Positions 25,531 to 38,449 are shown, numbered from the stretch's first letter. The stretch: 64,000 bases of DNA from Candidatus Gottesmanbacteria bacterium UBA5942 (GCA_002430725.1 DJCU01000001.1:9639-73638), one strand, 5' to 3'. Numbers and translations: made by a program. Notes: generated by a model not told the origin, from the sequence alone.

Positions 25531-26574
25531 ATGAAACGAATTGTTATTATTGTAGTTTCCCTGATATTACTTTTAGCTATTCCCGCTTCGGTATTCCTTA
25601 CCATGCGAACACAGGAATTACGGAAAAAGGCTGCGCCCGCAACAACCCTTACTCTCACTCCAACAACTATTACCAAAGGAGTTGGTGAAGAATTCACCCT
25701 TGAAGCCCGCATGAACACTGGGGATAATCAAATCGTTGCGGTAGAACTTAATCTCACCTTTGACCCCACCAAGCTTCAGGCTGACTGGATTCACAATGGC
25801 ACAATGTTTCCAAATATTCTTTCTTCCGGCACCGTAGGGAACGGCACAGTATCCATCGCACTCGGAGCAACAAATACTACTACACCTATAACTGGTACGG
25901 GTACTGTCGCGACCATTAAATTCAAAACGCTAGCGCCAACGACAGCCCCAATCGCAGTTCGGTTTGCAGCGGACACTTTTGTCGGCGCGCTAAACGAAGG
26001 AAGTACCAACGCGCTTACAAGCTCAGTACCGGCAACAATTACGATTACCGGAGGCGGATCTACTGGCGTTACCCCGACAACAACTATCACAGCAGCGACT
26101 ACTCCAACGGTAACACTGACACCCACGCTCACCCCAACGTTGGGAGCATCAGACAGCGCAAGTCCATCAGCAGTAAGCATCGAAAGTCCATCACGGAATG
26201 AACGTGTTGAGACACTTCAACCAACAATCATCGGAAAAGCGCCACCCGGCTCAGTAGTCACCGTTACCGTTTATTCTGATCCCATCACCGTCACCGTTAC
26301 CGCAGACGCAAACGGTGATTGGTCGTATACCCTCACTGAACCGCTTGCGTCAGGGCCACACACGATCGTTGTCGCTGCACAAGATGCAGAAACAGGACAG
26401 TCCCACACTGCAACCCTCGCATTTGTTGTAGCAACTGATGGTGACAATGGTGCATCTGGAAGCGCTACCCCTGTTGCAGGCGCTGTAGAAAACACCATTG
26501 CACTTCTTGCATTAGGATTTATATTTATCGGTATGGGCGCTTTCATTCCTAAATTACGGAGGGTAGACCTATGA
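25531..26574 (+). CDS. Surface protein: signal/TM, cohesin-like domain, Ig-like domain, and a C-terminal TM anchor with a basic tail.
   Basis: GEEFTLEARMNTGDNQIVAVELNLTFDPTKLQ...GTVATIKFKTLAP resembles the cohesin fold. Thr-rich linker. C-terminus IALLALGFIFIGMGAFIPKLRRVDL. Confidence 0.5.
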   Translation: MKRIVIIVVSLILLLAIPASVFLTMRTQELRKKAAPATTLTLTPTTITKGVGEEFTLEARMNTGDNQIVAVELNLTFDPTKLQADWIHNGTMFPNILSSGTVGNGTVSIALGATNTTTPITGTGTVATIKFKTLAPTTAPIAVRFAADTFVGALNEGSTNALTSSVPATITITGGGSTGVTPTTTITAATTPTVTLTPTLTPTLGASDSASPSAVSIESPSRNERVETLQPTIIGKAPPGSVVTVTVYSDPITVTVTADANGDWSYTLTEPLASGPHTIVVAAQDAETGQSHTATLAFVVATDGDNGASGSATPVAGAVENTIALLALGFIFIGMGAFIPKLRRVDL

Positions 26575-29689: not shown

Positions 29690-29719
29690 TTGACCCACCA
29701 GCACCAAGTGCGTTATACT
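29690..29719 (+). promoter_or_regulatory. Sigma70-like promoter of rpsT (TTGACC - 18 nt - TATACT), 7 nt before the ATG. The -35 box overlaps the divergent murJ promoter.
   Basis: TTGACC at 29690-29695, TATACT at 29714-29719, ATG at 29727. On the minus strand, TATAAT lies 9 nt before the murJ ATG. Confidence 0.5.
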
Positions 29720-29726
29720 TCCACCC

Positions 29727-29963
29727 ATGCCAATCATAAAACGAGCTATTAAAAAGTTGCGCCATGACCGTGCGCGCACCTTACAGAACGAAAAATCAAG
29801 AAACACCCTGAAAATGGTGGTTAAAAAAGCACGAAAAGTGCCAACAATTAAATCTATCTCAGAAGCAGCAAGTGCGCTTGATAAGGCCGTCAAAAAACAT
29901 CTTATCCATAAAAACGCAGCAGCCCGCACCAAATCAAGGCTGTCAAAACTTCTCAAAAAATAA
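29727..29963 (+). CDS. rpsT: Ribosomal protein S20.
   Basis: MPIIKRAIKKLRHDRARTLQNEKSRNTLK is canonical S20. Confidence 0.9.
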   Translation: MPIIKRAIKKLRHDRARTLQNEKSRNTLKMVVKKARKVPTIKSISEAASALDKAVKKHLIHKNAAARTKSRLSKLLKK

Positions 29964-30025: not shown

Positions 30026-30577
30026 ATGCCTGCCAATCAAATACGCATTAATCTTTTGGGGACTCAAGATTTGGGTCACACACCATGGGGACGCCTCGTC
30101 TCGTGGGCAACCACATACGGAAGATACATCATGATCACCACTGAAATTGTGGTGCTTTTGGCATTTATATCCCGCTTCAGCCTCGATCGCAAAAATACCG
30201 ACCTAACTGAAGAGCTTGGTCAAAAACAGGCAATTATCGAAGCAAACCTTGAATTCGAACGGGAAATAAAATCATTACAGGCAAATCTTACGACCGCAAA
30301 AAAGCTTCTCACTGATCAAACAAAACCGGTAGAGCTTCTCAATCTTATAGAATCAACGCTCCCTGCCGATGTTTTTCTTTCATCACTCGATATTTCGCAA
30401 ACCAAACTGACACTCACCGCTTCGGCAGGCACGACACAAGGATTTGCACAATTTCTATCAAATATCCAATCGGTTCGCCAACTCCAAAATGTATTATTGG
30501 GAGACATACGGCGCGAACCCACGACAGGTATCGAATTTCAACTCACTGCTGATGTCGCAGGTGCACCAAAAAAATAA
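30026..30577 (+). CDS. pilN: Type IV pilus assembly protein PilN.
   Basis: N-terminal IRINLL motif (the PilM-binding INLLP signature), a single TM, a coiled coil and a C-terminal domain. Confidence 0.7.
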   Translation: MPANQIRINLLGTQDLGHTPWGRLVSWATTYGRYIMITTEIVVLLAFISRFSLDRKNTDLTEELGQKQAIIEANLEFEREIKSLQANLTTAKKLLTDQTKPVELLNLIESTLPADVFLSSLDISQTKLTLTASAGTTQGFAQFLSNIQSVRQLQNVLLGDIRREPTTGIEFQLTADVAGAPKK

Positions 30578-30580
30578 CGT

Positions 30581-31237
30581 ATGGCAAACACACCACTTAA
30601 TCAATCAAGTCTCGATACTCAATTCCACCGATATTACCAACGACTTACCCCTATCATGAAAAAACCAAAAATGCGGGCGTCTACGACCGCGGTTTTTTCG
30701 TTTTTAGCAATCTCGCTATTTACATGGTATGCCATACGACCTACCGCTCAAACGATTATTTTCCTACGCCGCGAAATTTCCGACAAAACAGCGCTCAATG
30801 AACAAATGGAAAATAAAATCACCGCACTCATAGAATCACAAGATACCTATGAAAAGATCAAAGAACGACTTCCGATAGTCCAACAAGCGCTCCCCCCAAA
30901 TCCAGATGGGGTTATACTGGCACGACAATTACGAAATCTCGCTGTTATCTCGGGTGCGTCCATTTCCGCCATACAAGTACCCAGTCTTCCTATCTTAGGA
31001 AAAGAGGCAACGCCAGGAGCAAAACTCGCGCCGCCCAAACCGCTCGAAGAATTTCCTGTGAACGTGGTGCTCACCGGCCCTTATGCATCACTAAAAACAT
31101 TTATTGATGGATTACTGACGCTTCGGCGCATTACATCTATCGACACCATTAATATACGACCAGCCCTTCGACAAGGGCTTTCTCTCGATTCATTACAACT
31201 ATCTATTAAGATACAATCGTATTACTCAACACAATAA
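30581..31237 (+). CDS. pilO: Type IV pilus assembly protein PilO-like.
   Basis: Short cytoplasmic N-terminus, a TM, a coiled coil and a C-terminal domain. Immediately downstream of pilN, in PilO position. Confidence 0.5.
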   Translation: MANTPLNQSSLDTQFHRYYQRLTPIMKKPKMRASTTAVFSFLAISLFTWYAIRPTAQTIIFLRREISDKTALNEQMENKITALIESQDTYEKIKERLPIVQQALPPNPDGVILARQLRNLAVISGASISAIQVPSLPILGKEATPGAKLAPPKPLEEFPVNVVLTGPYASLKTFIDGLLTLRRITSIDTINIRPALRQGLSLDSLQLSIKIQSYYSTQ

Positions 31238-31241
31238 CACT

Positions 31242-31439
31242 ATGGACGAAGAACGGGATTTATTACTTGTTGCAGTATTTACGACACTCACGATATTTTT
31301 GTGGGTATTTTTCGAATTGGTAAAAACATCCAAAACATCGTCAATTGCCACCCCACTTCAGCAAGTCGTGAGTCCACTCACCAGCAAAATTGAAGTAGAG
31401 GTAATTGATGAACTTGAAAAAAGAAGCACATTAGATTAA
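31242..31439 (+). CDS. Small single-TM hypothetical protein in the pil cluster.
   Basis: 65 aa, LLLVAVFTTLTIFLWVFFELV hydrophobic segment, tightly packed between pilO and the next gene. Confidence 0.35.
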   Translation: MDEERDLLLVAVFTTLTIFLWVFFELVKTSKTSSIATPLQQVVSPLTSKIEVEVIDELEKRSTLD

Positions 31440-31443
31440 TGAT

Positions 31444-32733
31444 ATGCAGGAGCGAAAAATTCCAACACTCATCGGATTATTATTAGTAGCCATCGCAGTC
31501 ATGGTATTCCGATTTGCGTTCGATCGTATCAGCCCATATATGTCGCGGGCATCAGCAATACAGTCGCCCCAAAACGTAACCATCAGCAATATTACTGACA
31601 CAGCATTTACTGTGTCATGGCTTACACAAGAACAGACAACGGGGGCAATTGTTGTTGAAGGCATCACGTCTCCTTTTTATGACGATCGTCAACTAACACC
31701 GTCCTCCTCGTCAACGAAACGAGAAGAGTTATTTTTTACTCATAGTGTTTCTATAAGAAATAGTAATCCAGACACCACATATAAATTCCGGATATTGTCC
31801 GGAGGTAAAATCTATACAGATAATGGCAACGCGTACGAAGTGCGCACAGCTCCGCTACTCAATGGCACTGGAACAAATTTAGAACCAGCGTATGGTCAAG
31901 TAACAACGCCTACAGATTTACCAGCCGAAGGCTCACTCGTCTACTTAACCATGACAAACGGGCAAACACTTTCTACCCTTGTTAACACGTCTGGTTCGTG
32001 GGTCATCCCGCTTAACCTTGTCCGCACACAAGACTTAACGAGGTTTATCGAACCTGCCGAACGCATCGATGAATCTATTGTCATCCGTTCACCAGAGGGT
32101 GAAGCCTCTGCGCTCACCGATAGCCTCAATGATAATCCCGTACCTGCGATGACTATCGGTAAAACATACGATTTTAGAAAAATTCAGGCTAACAATCTCA
32201 ATGAAAACAAGAAACTTGCCGAAGCCCCCCCTGCGGTTCTCGGTACGCAAACAAGTCAGGCTGCGCAAACCATCGCAATCACAAAACCAGCGCAAGGGGC
32301 GGCAATACCTTCAAATTTACCGCTCATTCAGGGTACTGGACTACCAGGTAAAAACGTTTTGGTAGTGGTAGGGATACAAAATCCGCTCAGCGCTTCCGTT
32401 ACTGTGGGGGCAGATGGTATTTGGCGATACACCCCCGAACGCCCACTACATGAAGGGAAACAAAGCGTCACTATCACCACTCAAAACGCCCAAAATCAAA
32501 CAAAGGCTATTACACATACCTTTGAAATCCTTAAAAGTGGAACACAGGTGTTGGGCGATGCTACCCCATCAGCAACCATAGAACCTACCCCAACACTCGA
32601 TGAAACACCTTCACCTACTGCAACACTCACCGGAGAAGAAATGCCTACAAGCGGCAATGAGCTGCCGCTCATCATCATGCTTATACTCGGTGCTACATTA
32701 TTATTAGGCGGAGGCAGCTTACTGTTTCTCTAG
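31444..32733 (+). CDS. Membrane-anchored surface protein with FN3-like and Ig-like domains and a C-terminal TM. The N-terminus resembles a degenerate type IV prepilin leader.
   Basis: NVTISNITDTAFTVSWLTQEQTTGAIVV is FN3-like. C-terminus PLIIMLILGATLLLGGGSLLFL. N-terminal RKIPTLIGLLLVAIAV aligns with the KGFTLIELLVV pilin consensus but lacks the Gly and Glu. Confidence 0.5.
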   Translation: MQERKIPTLIGLLLVAIAVMVFRFAFDRISPYMSRASAIQSPQNVTISNITDTAFTVSWLTQEQTTGAIVVEGITSPFYDDRQLTPSSSSTKREELFFTHSVSIRNSNPDTTYKFRILSGGKIYTDNGNAYEVRTAPLLNGTGTNLEPAYGQVTTPTDLPAEGSLVYLTMTNGQTLSTLVNTSGSWVIPLNLVRTQDLTRFIEPAERIDESIVIRSPEGEASALTDSLNDNPVPAMTIGKTYDFRKIQANNLNENKKLAEAPPAVLGTQTSQAAQTIAITKPAQGAAIPSNLPLIQGTGLPGKNVLVVVGIQNPLSASVTVGADGIWRYTPERPLHEGKQSVTITTQNAQNQTKAITHTFEILKSGTQVLGDATPSATIEPTPTLDETPSPTATLTGEEMPTSGNELPLIIMLILGATLLLGGGSLLFL

Positions 32734-32740
32734 CAAAATC

Positions 32741-32760
32741 ACGCATGCATTGCGTTTTTG
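32741..32760 (+). terminator. Intrinsic terminator after the FN3 surface-protein gene.
   Basis: ACGCA-TGCAT-TGCGT hairpin followed by TTTTT. Confidence 0.55.
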
Positions 32761-32887
32761 GTATATCCCAATAACAAGCACTTGACGAAACGAGTAAAAA
32801 CCCGTTAGTCTGATAATAGGTGTACACTTTGTATTCGTAGGCTTACGCGACATATCCTAAGCCGAGAGTACGCATTTAACTAATCTT

Positions 32888-33955
32888 GTGCCAGACGATA
32901 TTTTAGACGCAGCTCAAAAAGCAATAAATGACGCAGCAAAAAACGCCGATGCAGGCGCAGTTCCTGCTGCTCCTCTAAACGAAACACCTGCACCACAAAG
33001 CGCACCGCTACCGCCTGAACCAGTCGAACCAGTAACACCCCCACCTGCAGAAATGCCGCAGTCATCACCGGTAACACCCGAAACACCAGCGTCAACAGAT
33101 GCTCCTACAACACCCACGCAGGCATCCACCGATATGACAAAAGAAGAAATGATGAATGAACTCCTTGGGTCAACGTCAGTCGCTGCCCCAGCGTCAGTGG
33201 TCGTTCCTCCTCCAGAAAAAAGTGGAAAACCGCACAGCGGAAGCTTGCCGCCCAAAAAAACTTCTAAGGTAGGTATTATCGCTGTTATCGCAGCGTTACT
33301 TCTGACGCTCCCAGTTGCGGTTTATTTCATATCACAACAAAACAGTCAGATCGCAGATATTAGAAATCGCGCTGCCTGGGATACGGTATACCAAGGCTGT
33401 ACCGTCAGTCCTGATAGTTGTAAATCACTCGGACCAGGCTGGTCGTGCCATTGTCAAAATGGAACAGCGTGCACCCACACCGAATGCGAATACGATATTG
33501 AACGGAACTGTAGAGACCAAGGGAGACAATACTGCTTGAATGTCTTTAACGGAAATGCCATGACATGTTGCGTTGAAGGCTATGTCTGTGGACCAAGCGG
33601 CGGCTGTGTCCCTGGTGGAGGTGGTGGCGATGATGATAGCGGTGATGATGACGATACGGAGCCAACTCCCACGCCCACCACAGGAATTACGCCAGTCTGC
33701 CAAAATATAAAACTCTACAAAAATGGCACACAGGTTACTGACCTTAACACCCTTCGCGCTGGTGACGAAGTAGTACTCGCTGTCAAAGGCAACCTTTCAC
33801 CAACGAAGGCACACTTTAGAGTTAACGGGTCTGGCTGGACAGAAACCACAACTAAAAATGCAAGCGATGAGTTTACATGGAGTTACACCATACCTGAAGG
33901 TGTACCTGACTTTGTTATAGAAGGCGAAGTGTTTACGAACGGAGCATGGAGATAA
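32888..33955 (+). CDS. Bitopic membrane protein: cytoplasmic Pro-rich N-terminus, one TM, an extracellular Cys-rich module, an acidic linker and a C-terminal beta domain. GTG start.
   Basis: TM VGIIAVIAALLLTLPVAVYFI. At least 14 Cys in CTVSPDSCKSLGPGWSCHCQNGTACTHTECEYDIERNCRDQGRQYCLNVFNGNAMTCCVEGYVCGPSGGCVPGGGGG. Acidic linker DDDSGDDDD. Confidence 0.5.
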   Translation: MPDDILDAAQKAINDAAKNADAGAVPAAPLNETPAPQSAPLPPEPVEPVTPPPAEMPQSSPVTPETPASTDAPTTPTQASTDMTKEEMMNELLGSTSVAAPASVVVPPPEKSGKPHSGSLPPKKTSKVGIIAVIAALLLTLPVAVYFISQQNSQIADIRNRAAWDTVYQGCTVSPDSCKSLGPGWSCHCQNGTACTHTECEYDIERNCRDQGRQYCLNVFNGNAMTCCVEGYVCGPSGGCVPGGGGGDDDSGDDDDTEPTPTPTTGITPVCQNIKLYKNGTQVTDLNTLRAGDEVVLAVKGNLSPTKAHFRVNGSGWTETTTKNASDEFTWSYTIPEGVPDFVIEGEVFTNGAWR

Positions 33956-33956
33956 T

Positions 33957-34685
33957 ATGGGATTTTTGAAAAAATATTGGTATCTACTGCTTGTCACCAT
34001 TATCACTGCTGGCATTGGCGTGGTAGCCTACATTACAAGCACTAAGCTGGAACAACGAGCACCTGTTGCTCCCACTGTGCCGCAAGTCACACCAAAAGCG
34101 ACTGATGTAAACTGCAAACTTGTCTTTAGCATCGAGGCTGAACCAACACCAACACCGACTGACGGTCCGACTCCGACTCCGACACCAACGCCGACACCTG
34201 GACCAACAGCTACGCCTACACCGGAACCAACCGCCACTCCAACGCCTGTCGCTAACAATGAAAATCCGGTCTGCGTAGATCTCACTGTCGAACCTGCAAC
34301 GGGCACTGTCCCCTATACCGTCACCTTGACCTGTATTGGACGGGATGAAGACGGTGATATTACCGCTGCAGAATTTACCATGCCCGATGGATCTACCAAG
34401 CTTGTTGAACAAAATGTTGGCAGCCCAGGGTCACTTACCACCACCTATACAGTTACGACAAGTGGCGCATACAGCTTCTCCTGTCAGGTACGAGACAACA
34501 ACAGCGTTTGGGTATCGTCCGAAAACTGCCGCGTCTCAACAGGGCCAACGCCGCCACCAGGAACTACTGCAACGCCGACTCCTATCCCAACACCGAAAAT
34601 ACCGGTCGCTGGAGTACCATCAGTCCTTGGAGCATCAGCGGTTGCTGGAGGACTACTCTTACTGCTCATCGGGTTAATATTCTAA
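33957..34685 (+). CDS. PKD-like domain surface protein with Pro/Thr linkers and a C-terminal hydrophobic anchor. Paralog of the CDS at 1493.
   Basis: DITAAEFTMPDGS...TTYTVTTSGAYSFSCQVRDNNSV parallels the CDS at 1493-2266. PTPTPT linkers. C-terminus GGLLLLLIGLIF. Confidence 0.55.
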   Translation: MGFLKKYWYLLLVTIITAGIGVVAYITSTKLEQRAPVAPTVPQVTPKATDVNCKLVFSIEAEPTPTPTDGPTPTPTPTPTPGPTATPTPEPTATPTPVANNENPVCVDLTVEPATGTVPYTVTLTCIGRDEDGDITAAEFTMPDGSTKLVEQNVGSPGSLTTTYTVTTSGAYSFSCQVRDNNSVWVSSENCRVSTGPTPPPGTTATPTPIPTPKIPVAGVPSVLGASAVAGGLLLLLIGLIF

Positions 34686-36604: not shown

Positions 36605-38449
36605 ATGAAAGATGACCTCCTCAATGATTTAAACCCCGACCAGCAAAAAGCAGTGACGCACACCGATGGACCGGTGCTTATACTGGCCGGAGCAGGAAGC
36701 GGTAAAACACGAGTGCTTACGTGTAGAGTGGCATACCTTGTCGCAGAAAAAAAAGTGTCACCACACCACATCCTCATGGTGACATTTACCAATAAAGCGG
36801 CGAAAGAAATGAAAAATCGTATTCGTGCGCTTATCCATACGAAAGATCTTCCTTATGCCGGTACGTTCCACTCGCTCTGCGCGCTTATCCTCAGAGTGGA
36901 TGGGAAGCATATCAATATCTCGTCTAACTTCGTTATCTATGACGACCAGGATCAAATTGACGCCATCAAAGAAGTCATGAAAAAGCTTGATATTTCCCCC
37001 AAGCTCTATAATCCTCGTGCAGTACTTTCCACTATCTCGCAAGCAAAAAATGAGCTTATCCCCGCTTTAGAATACCCCAATCTCGCCCGCGGCAATTTTC
37101 AGGAAACGGTCGCGCGTGTGTATTTAGGATATCAAAAACTATTATTGGAAAACGAAGCGTTGGACTTTGATGACCTTCTTATGAAAACAGTCATGTTATT
37201 TAGAAGAAACCCCGAAGTCCTGGGTAAATACCAAGAAAAATACCACTATGTGTTAATCGATGAGTATCAGGACACTAACAAAGCACAATACGAACTCACC
37301 AAACAATTAAGTGCCCGGTGGAGAAATATTTGCGTTGTCGGAGACGCATCACAATCCATATATCGGTGGCGCGGAGCGGATTTTAGAAACATCACCAATT
37401 TTCGTACCGACTTTCCGGAAGTAAAAGTATTTAATCTTGAACAAAACTACCGGTCGACCCAAATGATCCTCAATGCCGCGTTTGGCGTCATTTCCAAAAA
37501 CACATCACACCCTATTCTCAAACTCTGGACAGACAAAAAAGGTGGCGACCACATCACGCTGTATGAAGCCCGAAACGAACAAGACGAAGCAACATTTCTT
37601 ATTCATATGATATTGCAGTCCGGTCGACCATTTTCTGACTTCGCGGTCCTTTATCGCACAAATGCACAGTCTCGGGTATTGGAAGAAGCATTTTTGCATG
37701 CTGGCGTCCCATACACATTGGTAGGAGGTACTCGATTTTATGAACGAAAAGAAATCAAAGACGTGCTTTCGTATTTACGATTACTTTCTAATCCCAAAGA
37801 CACCGTATCGTACAACCGGATAGAAAAACTTGGTAAAGGAAGAATGAAAAAATTTCTTTCATTTGCCGAGGAAATTACAAAAGAGAATAAACTGATACAG
37901 TTTACTACCCTCGAGCTCCTCGATAATACGCTGGAAGCTACCCACTATCTCGAACTGTATGACGCAAACGTAGAAGAAGAAGCCTATCGATTAGAAAACA
38001 TCAAAGAACTCAGGTCGGTGGCTACCGAATTTCCGAATCTAACCGAATTCTTAGAAAACGTGGCACTCGTAGAACAGGAATATACACCCGAGCGCGTCAA
38101 AGAAATGGGAGAAAATCGACAAGCCGTCACCCTTATGACTTTACATGCGGCGAAGGGACTGGAATTTCCTGTCGTTTCAATTGTTGGCATGGAAGAAGGA
38201 ATATTCCCCCACAGTCGTTCACTCATGGAAAAAGATGAAATAGAAGAAGAAAGACGACTTTGCTATGTAGGTATTACCAGAGCAAAAGAAAAGCTATATC
38301 TTACCTACGCCAACAAAAGATTATTCTTTGGTACTCGCACCCAAAACATGATTTCACGATTTATCGCAGATATTCCGGAAGCAACACTCGATCTACAAGT
38401 TTCACTGTCACAGGATCGGGGATTTCGGGATGACGATATGCTCCTTTAG
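36605..38449 (+). CDS. pcrA: UvrD/PcrA-family superfamily-1 DNA helicase, short form.
   Basis: Walker A ILAGAGSGKTRVLT, helicase motifs through VGDASQSIYRWRGA...YRST, and 614 aa. Confidence 0.85.
   Translation: MKDDLLNDLNPDQQKAVTHTDGPVLILAGAGSGKTRVLTCRVAYLVAEKKVSPHHILMVTFTNKAAKEMKNRIRALIHTKDLPYAGTFHSLCALILRVDGKHINISSNFVIYDDQDQIDAIKEVMKKLDISPKLYNPRAVLSTISQAKNELIPALEYPNLARGNFQETVARVYLGYQKLLLENEALDFDDLLMKTVMLFRRNPEVLGKYQEKYHYVLIDEYQDTNKAQYELTKQLSARWRNICVVGDASQSIYRWRGADFRNITNFRTDFPEVKVFNLEQNYRSTQMILNAAFGVISKNTSHPILKLWTDKKGGDHITLYEARNEQDEATFLIHMILQSGRPFSDFAVLYRTNAQSRVLEEAFLHAGVPYTLVGGTRFYERKEIKDVLSYLRLLSNPKDTVSYNRIEKLGKGRMKKFLSFAEEITKENKLIQFTTLELLDNTLEATHYLELYDANVEEEAYRLENIKELRSVATEFPNLTEFLENVALVEQEYTPERVKEMGENRQAVTLMTLHAAKGLEFPVVSIVGMEEGIFPHSRSLMEKDEIEEERRLCYVGITRAKEKLYLTYANKRLFFGTRTQNMISRFIADIPEATLDLQVSLSQDRGFRDDDMLL

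Follow-up and report, generated by a model that had tools for sequence, protein, structure and literature searches.

The known systems nearest to the locus reported here include the envelope complexes of type IV pili. The locus is a four-gene module around pilN and pilO, genes A to D, in a stretch of 64,000 nucleotides from Candidatus Gottesmanbacteria bacterium UBA5942 (GCA_002430725.1, DJCU01000001.1:9639-73638). We call this whole stretch the window and count positions from its first letter. The type IVa system of Pseudomonas and Myxococcus comprises PilM, PilN, PilO and PilP together with PilQ (3jc8, 2rjz). Our locus shares with it the homology of PilN and PilO, the INLL motif and the PilN fold, the last taken from a model of A, as well as the adjacent order of pilN and pilO followed by two more envelope proteins in the operon. 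It differs in the absence of an adjacent pilM, in its third gene, which codes for a 65-amino-acid protein with a predicted membrane span and not for the PilP lipoprotein, and in its fourth gene, which codes for three beta-sandwich domains with an LPXTG-like tail and not for a secretin. Moreover, the operon lies among housekeeping genes, with no pilus motor or pilin gene near.

The single-membrane pili of Clostridium, Streptococcus sanguinis and Saccharibacteria TM7x use PilM, PilN and PilO without a secretin in cells that, as here, have a wall but no outer membrane. In TM7x, pilM, pilN and pilO lie inside loci with pilB, pilC and pilins (PMC12206443), whereas in our genome pilN and pilO stand apart from these genes. 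For single-membrane systems, the literature we searched offered no wall-anchored partner with a gene behind pilO. Type II secretion offers a further relative, since the GspL/GspM proteins (PulL 5hl8, EpsL 2w7v, XcpY 5n7l) share with A a single span and a ferredoxin-like domain. However, A has no counterpart of the cytoplasmic domain with which GspL replaces PilM, and no other type II secretion genes are nearby. The PilM/PilN/PilO cage of the Helicobacter pylori flagellum is likewise encoded away from pilus genes and serves as a peripheral envelope scaffold (PMC10823254), but there pilM is in the same operon and the organism has no pili at all. For the ultra-small bacteria to which our genome belongs, flagella are not reported, the Ch65 genome has none (PMC7143001), and pilus genes are reported as common.

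The fourth protein, D, also resembles the LPXTG proteins of Gram-positive bacteria. It shares with them the export helix, the tandem Ig/FN3-like domains, the Pro/Thr stalk and the [LIVM]PxTG motif with a hydrophobic tail, and the genome has a sortase. Unlike them, D is conserved and uniform at ~430 amino acids, its helix motif is invariant and family-specific, it is encoded in a tight operon with PilN and PilO, and the copy in the window has no basic tail. We found no description of a conserved operon for PilN, PilO, a small protein and an LPXTG protein in the literature searched. The reading that we tentatively prefer is that this operon encodes a subcomplex for pilus alignment to which a wall-anchored partner has been added.

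The pilN-pilO module and its conservation

Six open reading frames, A to F, were read in the window at the coordinates and lengths that an earlier note on this DNA had given. The short gaps it described were found as well and measure 3 nt between A and B, 4 nt between B and C and 4 nt between C and D. The module and the gene directly upstream of it are as follows.

29727..29963 (+): rpsT, ribosomal protein S20 (PF01649), directly upstream of A on the same strand
30026..30577 (+): A, PilN homologue, 183 amino acids
30047..30061 (+): PilN residues 8-12, INLLG, a PilM-binding-type motif ('IRINLL' is found in A)
30104..30187 (+): membrane-span region of PilN, unusually conserved
30581..31237 (+): B, PilO homologue, 218 amino acids
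31242..31439 (+): C, 65 amino acids, a single hydrophobic segment, no known family
31444..32733 (+): D, envelope protein of 429 amino acids

Both A and B scored above the Pfam cut-offs (A 36.3 bits with PilN, PF05137, cut-off 22.8; B 34.3 bits with PilO, PF04350, cut-off 22). A profile of 58 A orthologues matched Myxococcus xanthus PilN (3jc8_N, E-value 4.3e-6). The profile of 59 B orthologues matched M. xanthus PilO (3jc8_O, 6.9e-11) and the PilO structures 2rjz (3.6e-6) and 5uvr (3.2e-5) of Pseudomonas aeruginosa, and these structure-profile matches cover B residues 64-213. In the AlphaFold2 model of A (predicted local distance difference test, pLDDT, 82.8), a disordered N-terminus is followed by a long helix (20-111), which takes in the membrane span and a coiled coil, and by a beta-beta-alpha-beta-beta ectodomain. 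Foldseek placed PulL/GspL first (5hl8, target TM-score 0.79, root mean square deviation 1.7 Å), and the other solved matches were PilO, EpsL, XcpY and Thermus PilN (4bhq). The model gives A a predicted ectodomain of the PilN/PilO/GspL/GspM type. A and B are thus shown to be homologues of type IV pilus alignment proteins. Since profiles, and for A also structure comparison, returned the PilN/PilO fold, the homology that the earlier note had recognised stands. Public annotation already names both proteins correctly, and that part of the finding is ordinary.

The INLL(P)-type motif at the N-terminus of PilN is known to bind PilM from published PilM:PilN work. In essentially all of the 58 A orthologues, residues 8-12 fit [IV]-[NE]-[LF]-[LI]-[GP], and this conservation implies a conserved cytoplasmic partner of PilN. 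The membrane span is also strongly constrained, with W27, G32, R33, I35, T39, V43, A46, F47, R50, F51 and D54 invariant in the 58 orthologues and E40 kept in 57. The gene upstream of A is rpsT, and not pilM, in the window and in 66 relatives, at a median distance of 55 nt across relatives. The absence of an adjacent pilM despite a retained PilM-binding motif, which the earlier note had observed, therefore extends to the whole lineage. The PilN homologues listed, at least 120, are all orthologues of 148-200 amino acids, so none of them is fused to PilM. A metagenome scan with the PilN profile returned only orthologues of at least 45% identity, without paralogues or new contexts.

The small protein C gave zero matches in Pfam or NCBIfam. 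It carries conserved motifs in the relatives and is longer, 86-113 amino acids, in the more distant ones. Since C has no Cys, it cannot carry the lipobox of a PilP lipoprotein. The JGI name for this 65-amino-acid protein, 'retron-type reverse transcriptase', is clearly spurious and we rejected it.

Relatives of the module were collected by a motif-based scan with one genome per species, which gave 73 loci, nearly all labelled Candidatus Gottesmanbacteria. The earlier note had proposed synteny in relatives as a check. In the 66 loci that span rpsT to D, the order rpsT-A-B-C-D was found with A and B in all 66 and C in 65. The median gaps across relatives are 3 nt (A-B), 3 nt (B-C) and 4 nt (C-D). 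The four-gene block recurs in relatives further removed, and public labels place some of their homologues in Woese- or Shapirobacteria. In one locus, L081, the block sits behind an AddA-type helicase gene, with no rpsT or murJ. Here A-D are intact behind a new upstream neighbour, so the block moves as a unit.

The median identity to the window copies is 53% for A, 43% for B, 43% for C and 47% for D, compared with 56% for rpsT, 55% for the LCP gene and 43% for tpiA. A-D evolve about as slowly as housekeeping genes. The records of many of the loci, among them L003, L006, L008 and L009, are titled 'uncultured Gammaproteobacteria bacterium' despite a Microgenomates-specific gene order, which looks like mislabelling.

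Most relatives preserve the gene order of the entire 20-kb stretch between hrcA and pcrA, so that conserved order by itself is weak evidence. It would also be expected if C and D were functionally unrelated to PilN and PilO and had stayed beside them through the frozen gene order of small streamlined genomes. We regard this as very improbable. The gaps of 3-4 nt, and overlapping stops and starts, are maintained in ~70 genomes, and A-D remain together in L081 despite the changed upstream neighbours. The adjacent E and F have been lost, duplicated and inverted, whereas A-D never were.

The envelope protein D

The two ends of D are the following.

31444..31551 (+): D residues 1-36, conserved helix motif K-I-P-T-L-x-G-L-L-L, then an invariant Ala36
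32641..32733 (+): LPXTG-like sorting signal of D, MPTSG, then a hydrophobic stretch

Pfam placed Pur_ac_phosph_N/fn3 and Big_13 in D, just over their cut-offs. The D profile found 1,460 cluster representatives at an E-value of 1e-30 or below, and more than 100 of the best 150 matches are full-length, with 400-490 amino acids. In the model of D (pLDDT 84.4), an N-terminal helix of ~26 residues (8-33) leads directly into an FN3 domain, which covers residues 43-134. Two further domains come next, a second beta-sandwich at 149-243 and an Ig/Big_13 domain at 278-362; the disordered stalk occupies 367-397 and the C-terminal helix 407-428. The solved structures matched by Foldseek were only tandem FN3/Ig proteins (among them contactins, SiiE, an ice-binding adhesin and S-layer proteins).

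The earlier note had aligned the beginning of D, 'RKIPTLIGLLLVAIAV', with the prepilin consensus, and proposed an uncleaved anchor derived from a pilin. In this explanation the six genes would form an atypical pilus or appendage with D, E and F as adhesin-like cargo. The quoted sequence is found in D and the likeness is real. IPTLIGLLLV agrees with GFTLIELLVV at 6/10 positions, lies at the N-terminus after a Lys and is the sole match of at least 6/10 among the 18,783 ten-residue stretches of the window proteome. The helix motif is under strong selection and was found in 56 D orthologues and in no other open reading frame of the loci, which is unusual for an ordinary signal peptide. Its unusual conservation and its restriction to D suggest that it probably does more than generic targeting. 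For example, the helix may pack against the highly conserved membrane spans of A, B and C.

However, the residues that define a prepilin are lacking, as the earlier note itself had seen for the window copy. The Gly-1 position is Ile in D, and at least 90% of 101 relatives share I6, P7, T8, G11 and L14. The Glu5 position is Gly11, again in at least 90% of the 101, and the more distant relatives agree. Among the 21 D relatives that we read residue by residue, none (0/21) has Gly-1 or Glu5. The pilin and N_methyl models of Pfam and NCBIfam (PF07963, TIGR02532) gave no match to D at an E-value of 1 or below, and the structural model of D has no pilin head domain. Ten residues beyond the helix stands the invariant Ala36, in a [ST]-x-A context that could be a signal peptidase I site. 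Together with the tail it points to Sec, signal peptidase and sortase. Therefore, a pilin origin of the anchor appears improbable to us. We also set aside D as a sortase-polymerised pilin, as a pilin motif or E-box was not apparent by reading, and no scan was aimed at either.

At its other end, D carries what is in form a sortase sorting signal. The family pattern is [LIVM]-P-x-[TS]-G, with P401, G404 and P408 invariant in 101 sequences. The variants include IPETG, VPITG, IPTTG and VPDSG, often with a K/R tail. This LPXTG-like tail points to the Sec and sortase route and not to the prepilin pathway. A sortase gene (PF04203; TIGR01076 49.5 bits, cut-off 39.35) lies ~3.1-3.8 kb left of the window (L075:3879-4586, - strand). 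With 49.9 bits it fell short of the class C model (cut-off 160), so that no assignment to class C could be made, which also counted against D as a sortase-polymerised pilin. It was the only sortase seen. Within the window, three surface proteins have an LPXTG-like signal with a hydrophobic tail, namely a cohesin/Big_13 protein (TPVAG, 26467-26574), D (MPTSG, 32641-32733) and F (IPVAG, 34599-34685).

The most conserved stretch of D is KSGTQVLG[DE]ATPSAT (residues 364-378, 32533-32577), in the predicted disordered stalk. The cohesin protein has a similar sequence, TLGASDSASPSA, just ahead of its Big_13 domain (26137-26180). In the relatives L077, L081 and L082, genes for PMT-type glycosyltransferases, DUF2298 and GT87 lie just downstream. 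With these genes nearby, the stretches in D and the cohesin protein may be sites of glycosylation or processing.

In another explanation, the PilN/PilO platform and the pilus motor would together help Sec-exported surface proteins, D or others, to pass the wall in the manner of type II secretion, and D would be a substrate. Mutants of Clostridium perfringens in pilM, pilN and pilO secrete less of a biofilm matrix protein (PMC11580942). In our case the ectodomain fold of A is closest to GspL/PulL, and three LPXTG-like surface proteins are encoded nearby. Still, the one-to-one tight operon and the housekeeping-level conservation suit a stoichiometric partner better than a cargo, and no pseudopilin or ATPase gene is linked. 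We consider a secretion role of this kind hardly likely.

Neighbouring genes and the E-F cassette

The genes that follow the module, and the candidate transcription signals around it, are listed here.

29690..29719 (+): sigma-70-like promoter match, TTGACC-18-TATACT, 10/12, upstream of rpsT; a consensus match only
32741..32755 (+): terminator-like hairpin with T-run, weak, 5-bp stem, in the gap after D; a consensus match only
32888..33955 (+): E, 355 amino acids, GTG start, accessory type II membrane protein
33957..34685 (+): F, 242 amino acids, accessory surface protein

E begins 154 nt after D, and 1 nt separates E from F. The terminator that the earlier note had placed after D corresponds to the hairpin and T-run in the 154-nt gap, which are present but weak. 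The promoter match could drive rpsT together with A-D, although promoter-type consensus matches showed no enrichment over shuffled sequence.

E gave no Pfam match. Its N-terminus is cytoplasmic and carries a conserved motif (MPDDILDAAQKAI.DAA); behind it come a Pro-rich linker, the membrane span, a Cys-rich region with 12 Cys within ~70 residues and a C-terminal domain. The Cys-rich region is hypervariable in length and sequence, the C-terminal beta domain of ~85 amino acids is conserved, and the orthologues range from 300 to 585 amino acids. In F, a hydrophobic segment at the N-terminus is followed by a Pro/Thr linker and a PKD-like domain (PF00801, 21.5 bits, under the cut-off of 23.5), and IPVAG with a hydrophobic stretch forms the C-terminal signal. 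A paralogue of F is encoded at 1493-2266, with the same PKD-like core as F (a weak PKD match), the DITAAEF motif and Pro/Thr linkers; it has a C-terminal hydrophobic anchor, and a clear LPXTG motif is absent.

In the 48 loci that span D to the LCP gene, E is present in 36 and F in 41, and F is coupled to E. L017 and L071 carry the pair as a tandem duplication and L045 and L061 in inverted orientation, while in L021, L049, L050 and L059 the LCP gene follows D directly. E and F are a neighbouring, accessory and fast-evolving cassette outside the conserved module. Hence the view of all the downstream proteins as one module with adhesin-like cargo has to be divided: C and D belong with PilN and PilO, and E and F do not. 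Their dispensability also argues against the six-gene appendage. D is conserved like housekeeping genes and so is not behaving as variable cargo.

Upstream, the module is flanked by rpsT and by murJ on the minus strand. Downstream follow the LCP transferase gene, tpiA, a UvrD/PcrA-type helicase gene and two FemAB genes. Genes for FtsK and a sortase lie farther from A-D.

Rfam returned a single match across the window, RF03531 ('C. difficile sRNA included into helicase gene'; 38221-38317, +), whose 66.7 bits exceed the gathering score of 65.2. This match falls inside the pcrA/uvrD coding sequence and probably reflects conserved helicase coding sequence, not an RNA gene. The 64 kb contain no tRNA genes. 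GC skew is negative in 32/32 2-kb windows (-0.02 to -0.21), irrespective of gene strand, and a published Microgenomates genome was remarked for a strong disparity in strand composition (PMC7143001). About 6-8 kb past the right end (L079:1784-4168), a 794-amino-acid protein with weak or faint TraG/TrwB/DUF87-type matches resembles a conjugative coupling ATPase. Its flanking genes are unannotated, and it may be part of a DNA-transfer or mobile element.

Pilus genes and the proposed role of the module

Reading the translated open reading frames of the window, we recognised no pilM, pilB, pilC, pilT, pilD or pilin gene. The Pfam lists for 7.7 kb to its left and ~9 kb to its right contained no pilus genes, and a prepilin-motif scan of the window and the first 76 related loci gave no signal. 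Clustering of the unassigned open reading frames of at least 200 amino acids in the loci revealed no pilus gene. In these bacteria, pilus machinery including PilM is reported to be widespread (PMC6744442; PMC12206443) and PilQ to be lacking, and sortase is reported as near-ubiquitous in Microgenomates (PMC6744442). For a closed Microgenomates genome, a single pilus locus is described that lists PilA, minor pilins, PilD, PilB, PilT, PilC and PilM; PilN and PilO are not named in that list (PMC7143001). A split arrangement, with pilM beside the motor genes and pilN/pilO in a separate operon, fits these data.

On our preferred reading of an alignment subcomplex with a wall-anchored partner, the module could work as follows. 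The operon A-D would be a functional unit, possibly co-transcribed with rpsT. PilN and PilO would form their usual membrane-anchored heterodimer cage, and the INLL peptide of PilN would recruit a PilM whose gene lies apart, in the main pilus locus. As lineage-specific partners, C and D would take the operon positions of PilP and PilQ in double-membraned bacteria. D would be exported via Sec by its N-terminal helix, and sortase would then link it covalently to peptidoglycan through the LPXTG-like C-terminus. We propose that D, fixed in this way, lets the complex tie the membrane pilus platform to the wall. A-D would thus act as a wall-side strut or collar in a walled cell without an outer membrane. 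E and F would be a separately transcribed, rapidly evolving surface cassette and not part of the machine.

Several observations weigh against this proposal. In the ~81 kb of this genome that we examined, there is no pilM, pilB, pilC, pilD or pilin gene, and no related genome has one of them within 10 kb of the module. The likeness of C and D to PilP and PilQ is one of operon position only; Pfam and NCBIfam detected no sequence similarity between them. The sorting signal is imperfect in the window copy of D, which ends ...SLLFL without K/R, whereas many orthologues end in RK, RR or KK, and D reached 12.3 bits with TIGR01167 (cut-off 15.9, E-value 0.21). In a co-evolution test with a noisy background, the residual distance correlation of A and B, at 0.57, was suggestive and speaks for our reading. 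C and D reached only 0.09-0.25 with A and B, which equals the background, and unrelated pairs equalled or exceeded the A-B value (LCP-pcrA 0.65, hrcA-murJ 0.58).

Finally, a use of PilN and PilO other than in pili is known from the flagellar cage of H. pylori (PMC10823254). With this precedent, they could have been given a non-pilus job here, as a membrane-to-wall scaffold with C and D for wall growth, division or sortase-dependent display, the INLL peptide then binding another actin-fold protein, for example FtsA, in place of PilM. The housekeeping and envelope neighbourhood (murJ, rpsT, LCP transferase and FemAB, and farther off FtsK and sortase) would suit such a role. The module evolves at housekeeping rates, is present in every relative examined and never adjoins a pilus gene in the related genomes. 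On the other hand, the INLL motif has the canonical form for PilM binding. Moreover, the only Microgenomates pilus locus described in the literature is listed with PilM but without PilN and PilO, and such a PilM would need exactly this partner. The module in L081 has neither murJ nor rpsT beside it, so that adjacency is not obligatory. On balance, we think reuse for a non-pilus task unlikely, though it deserves more weight than the secretion or appendage explanations.

For type IV pili that cross, and are held in, the thick wall of cells without an outer membrane, the literature searched offered no counterpart of the PilP-PilQ conduit. A bolder form of our preferred reading is that PilN and PilO in Microgenomates gained a small span protein and a sortase-anchored protein of three beta-sandwiches, and that the resulting membrane-to-peptidoglycan complex does the job of PilP and PilQ. 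We consider this possible but doubtful. If it is true, a wall-side component of the type IV pilus machine would have been defined for the first time in cells without an outer membrane. If the module is unrelated to pili, PilN and PilO would be reused as a general envelope scaffold for the second time, the Helicobacter flagellar cage being the first case. Pili are thought to be central to the host attachment of ultra-small, host-dependent bacteria, and this slow-evolving, lineage-wide operon is a concrete candidate for coupling PilN and PilO to a seemingly wall-anchored protein.

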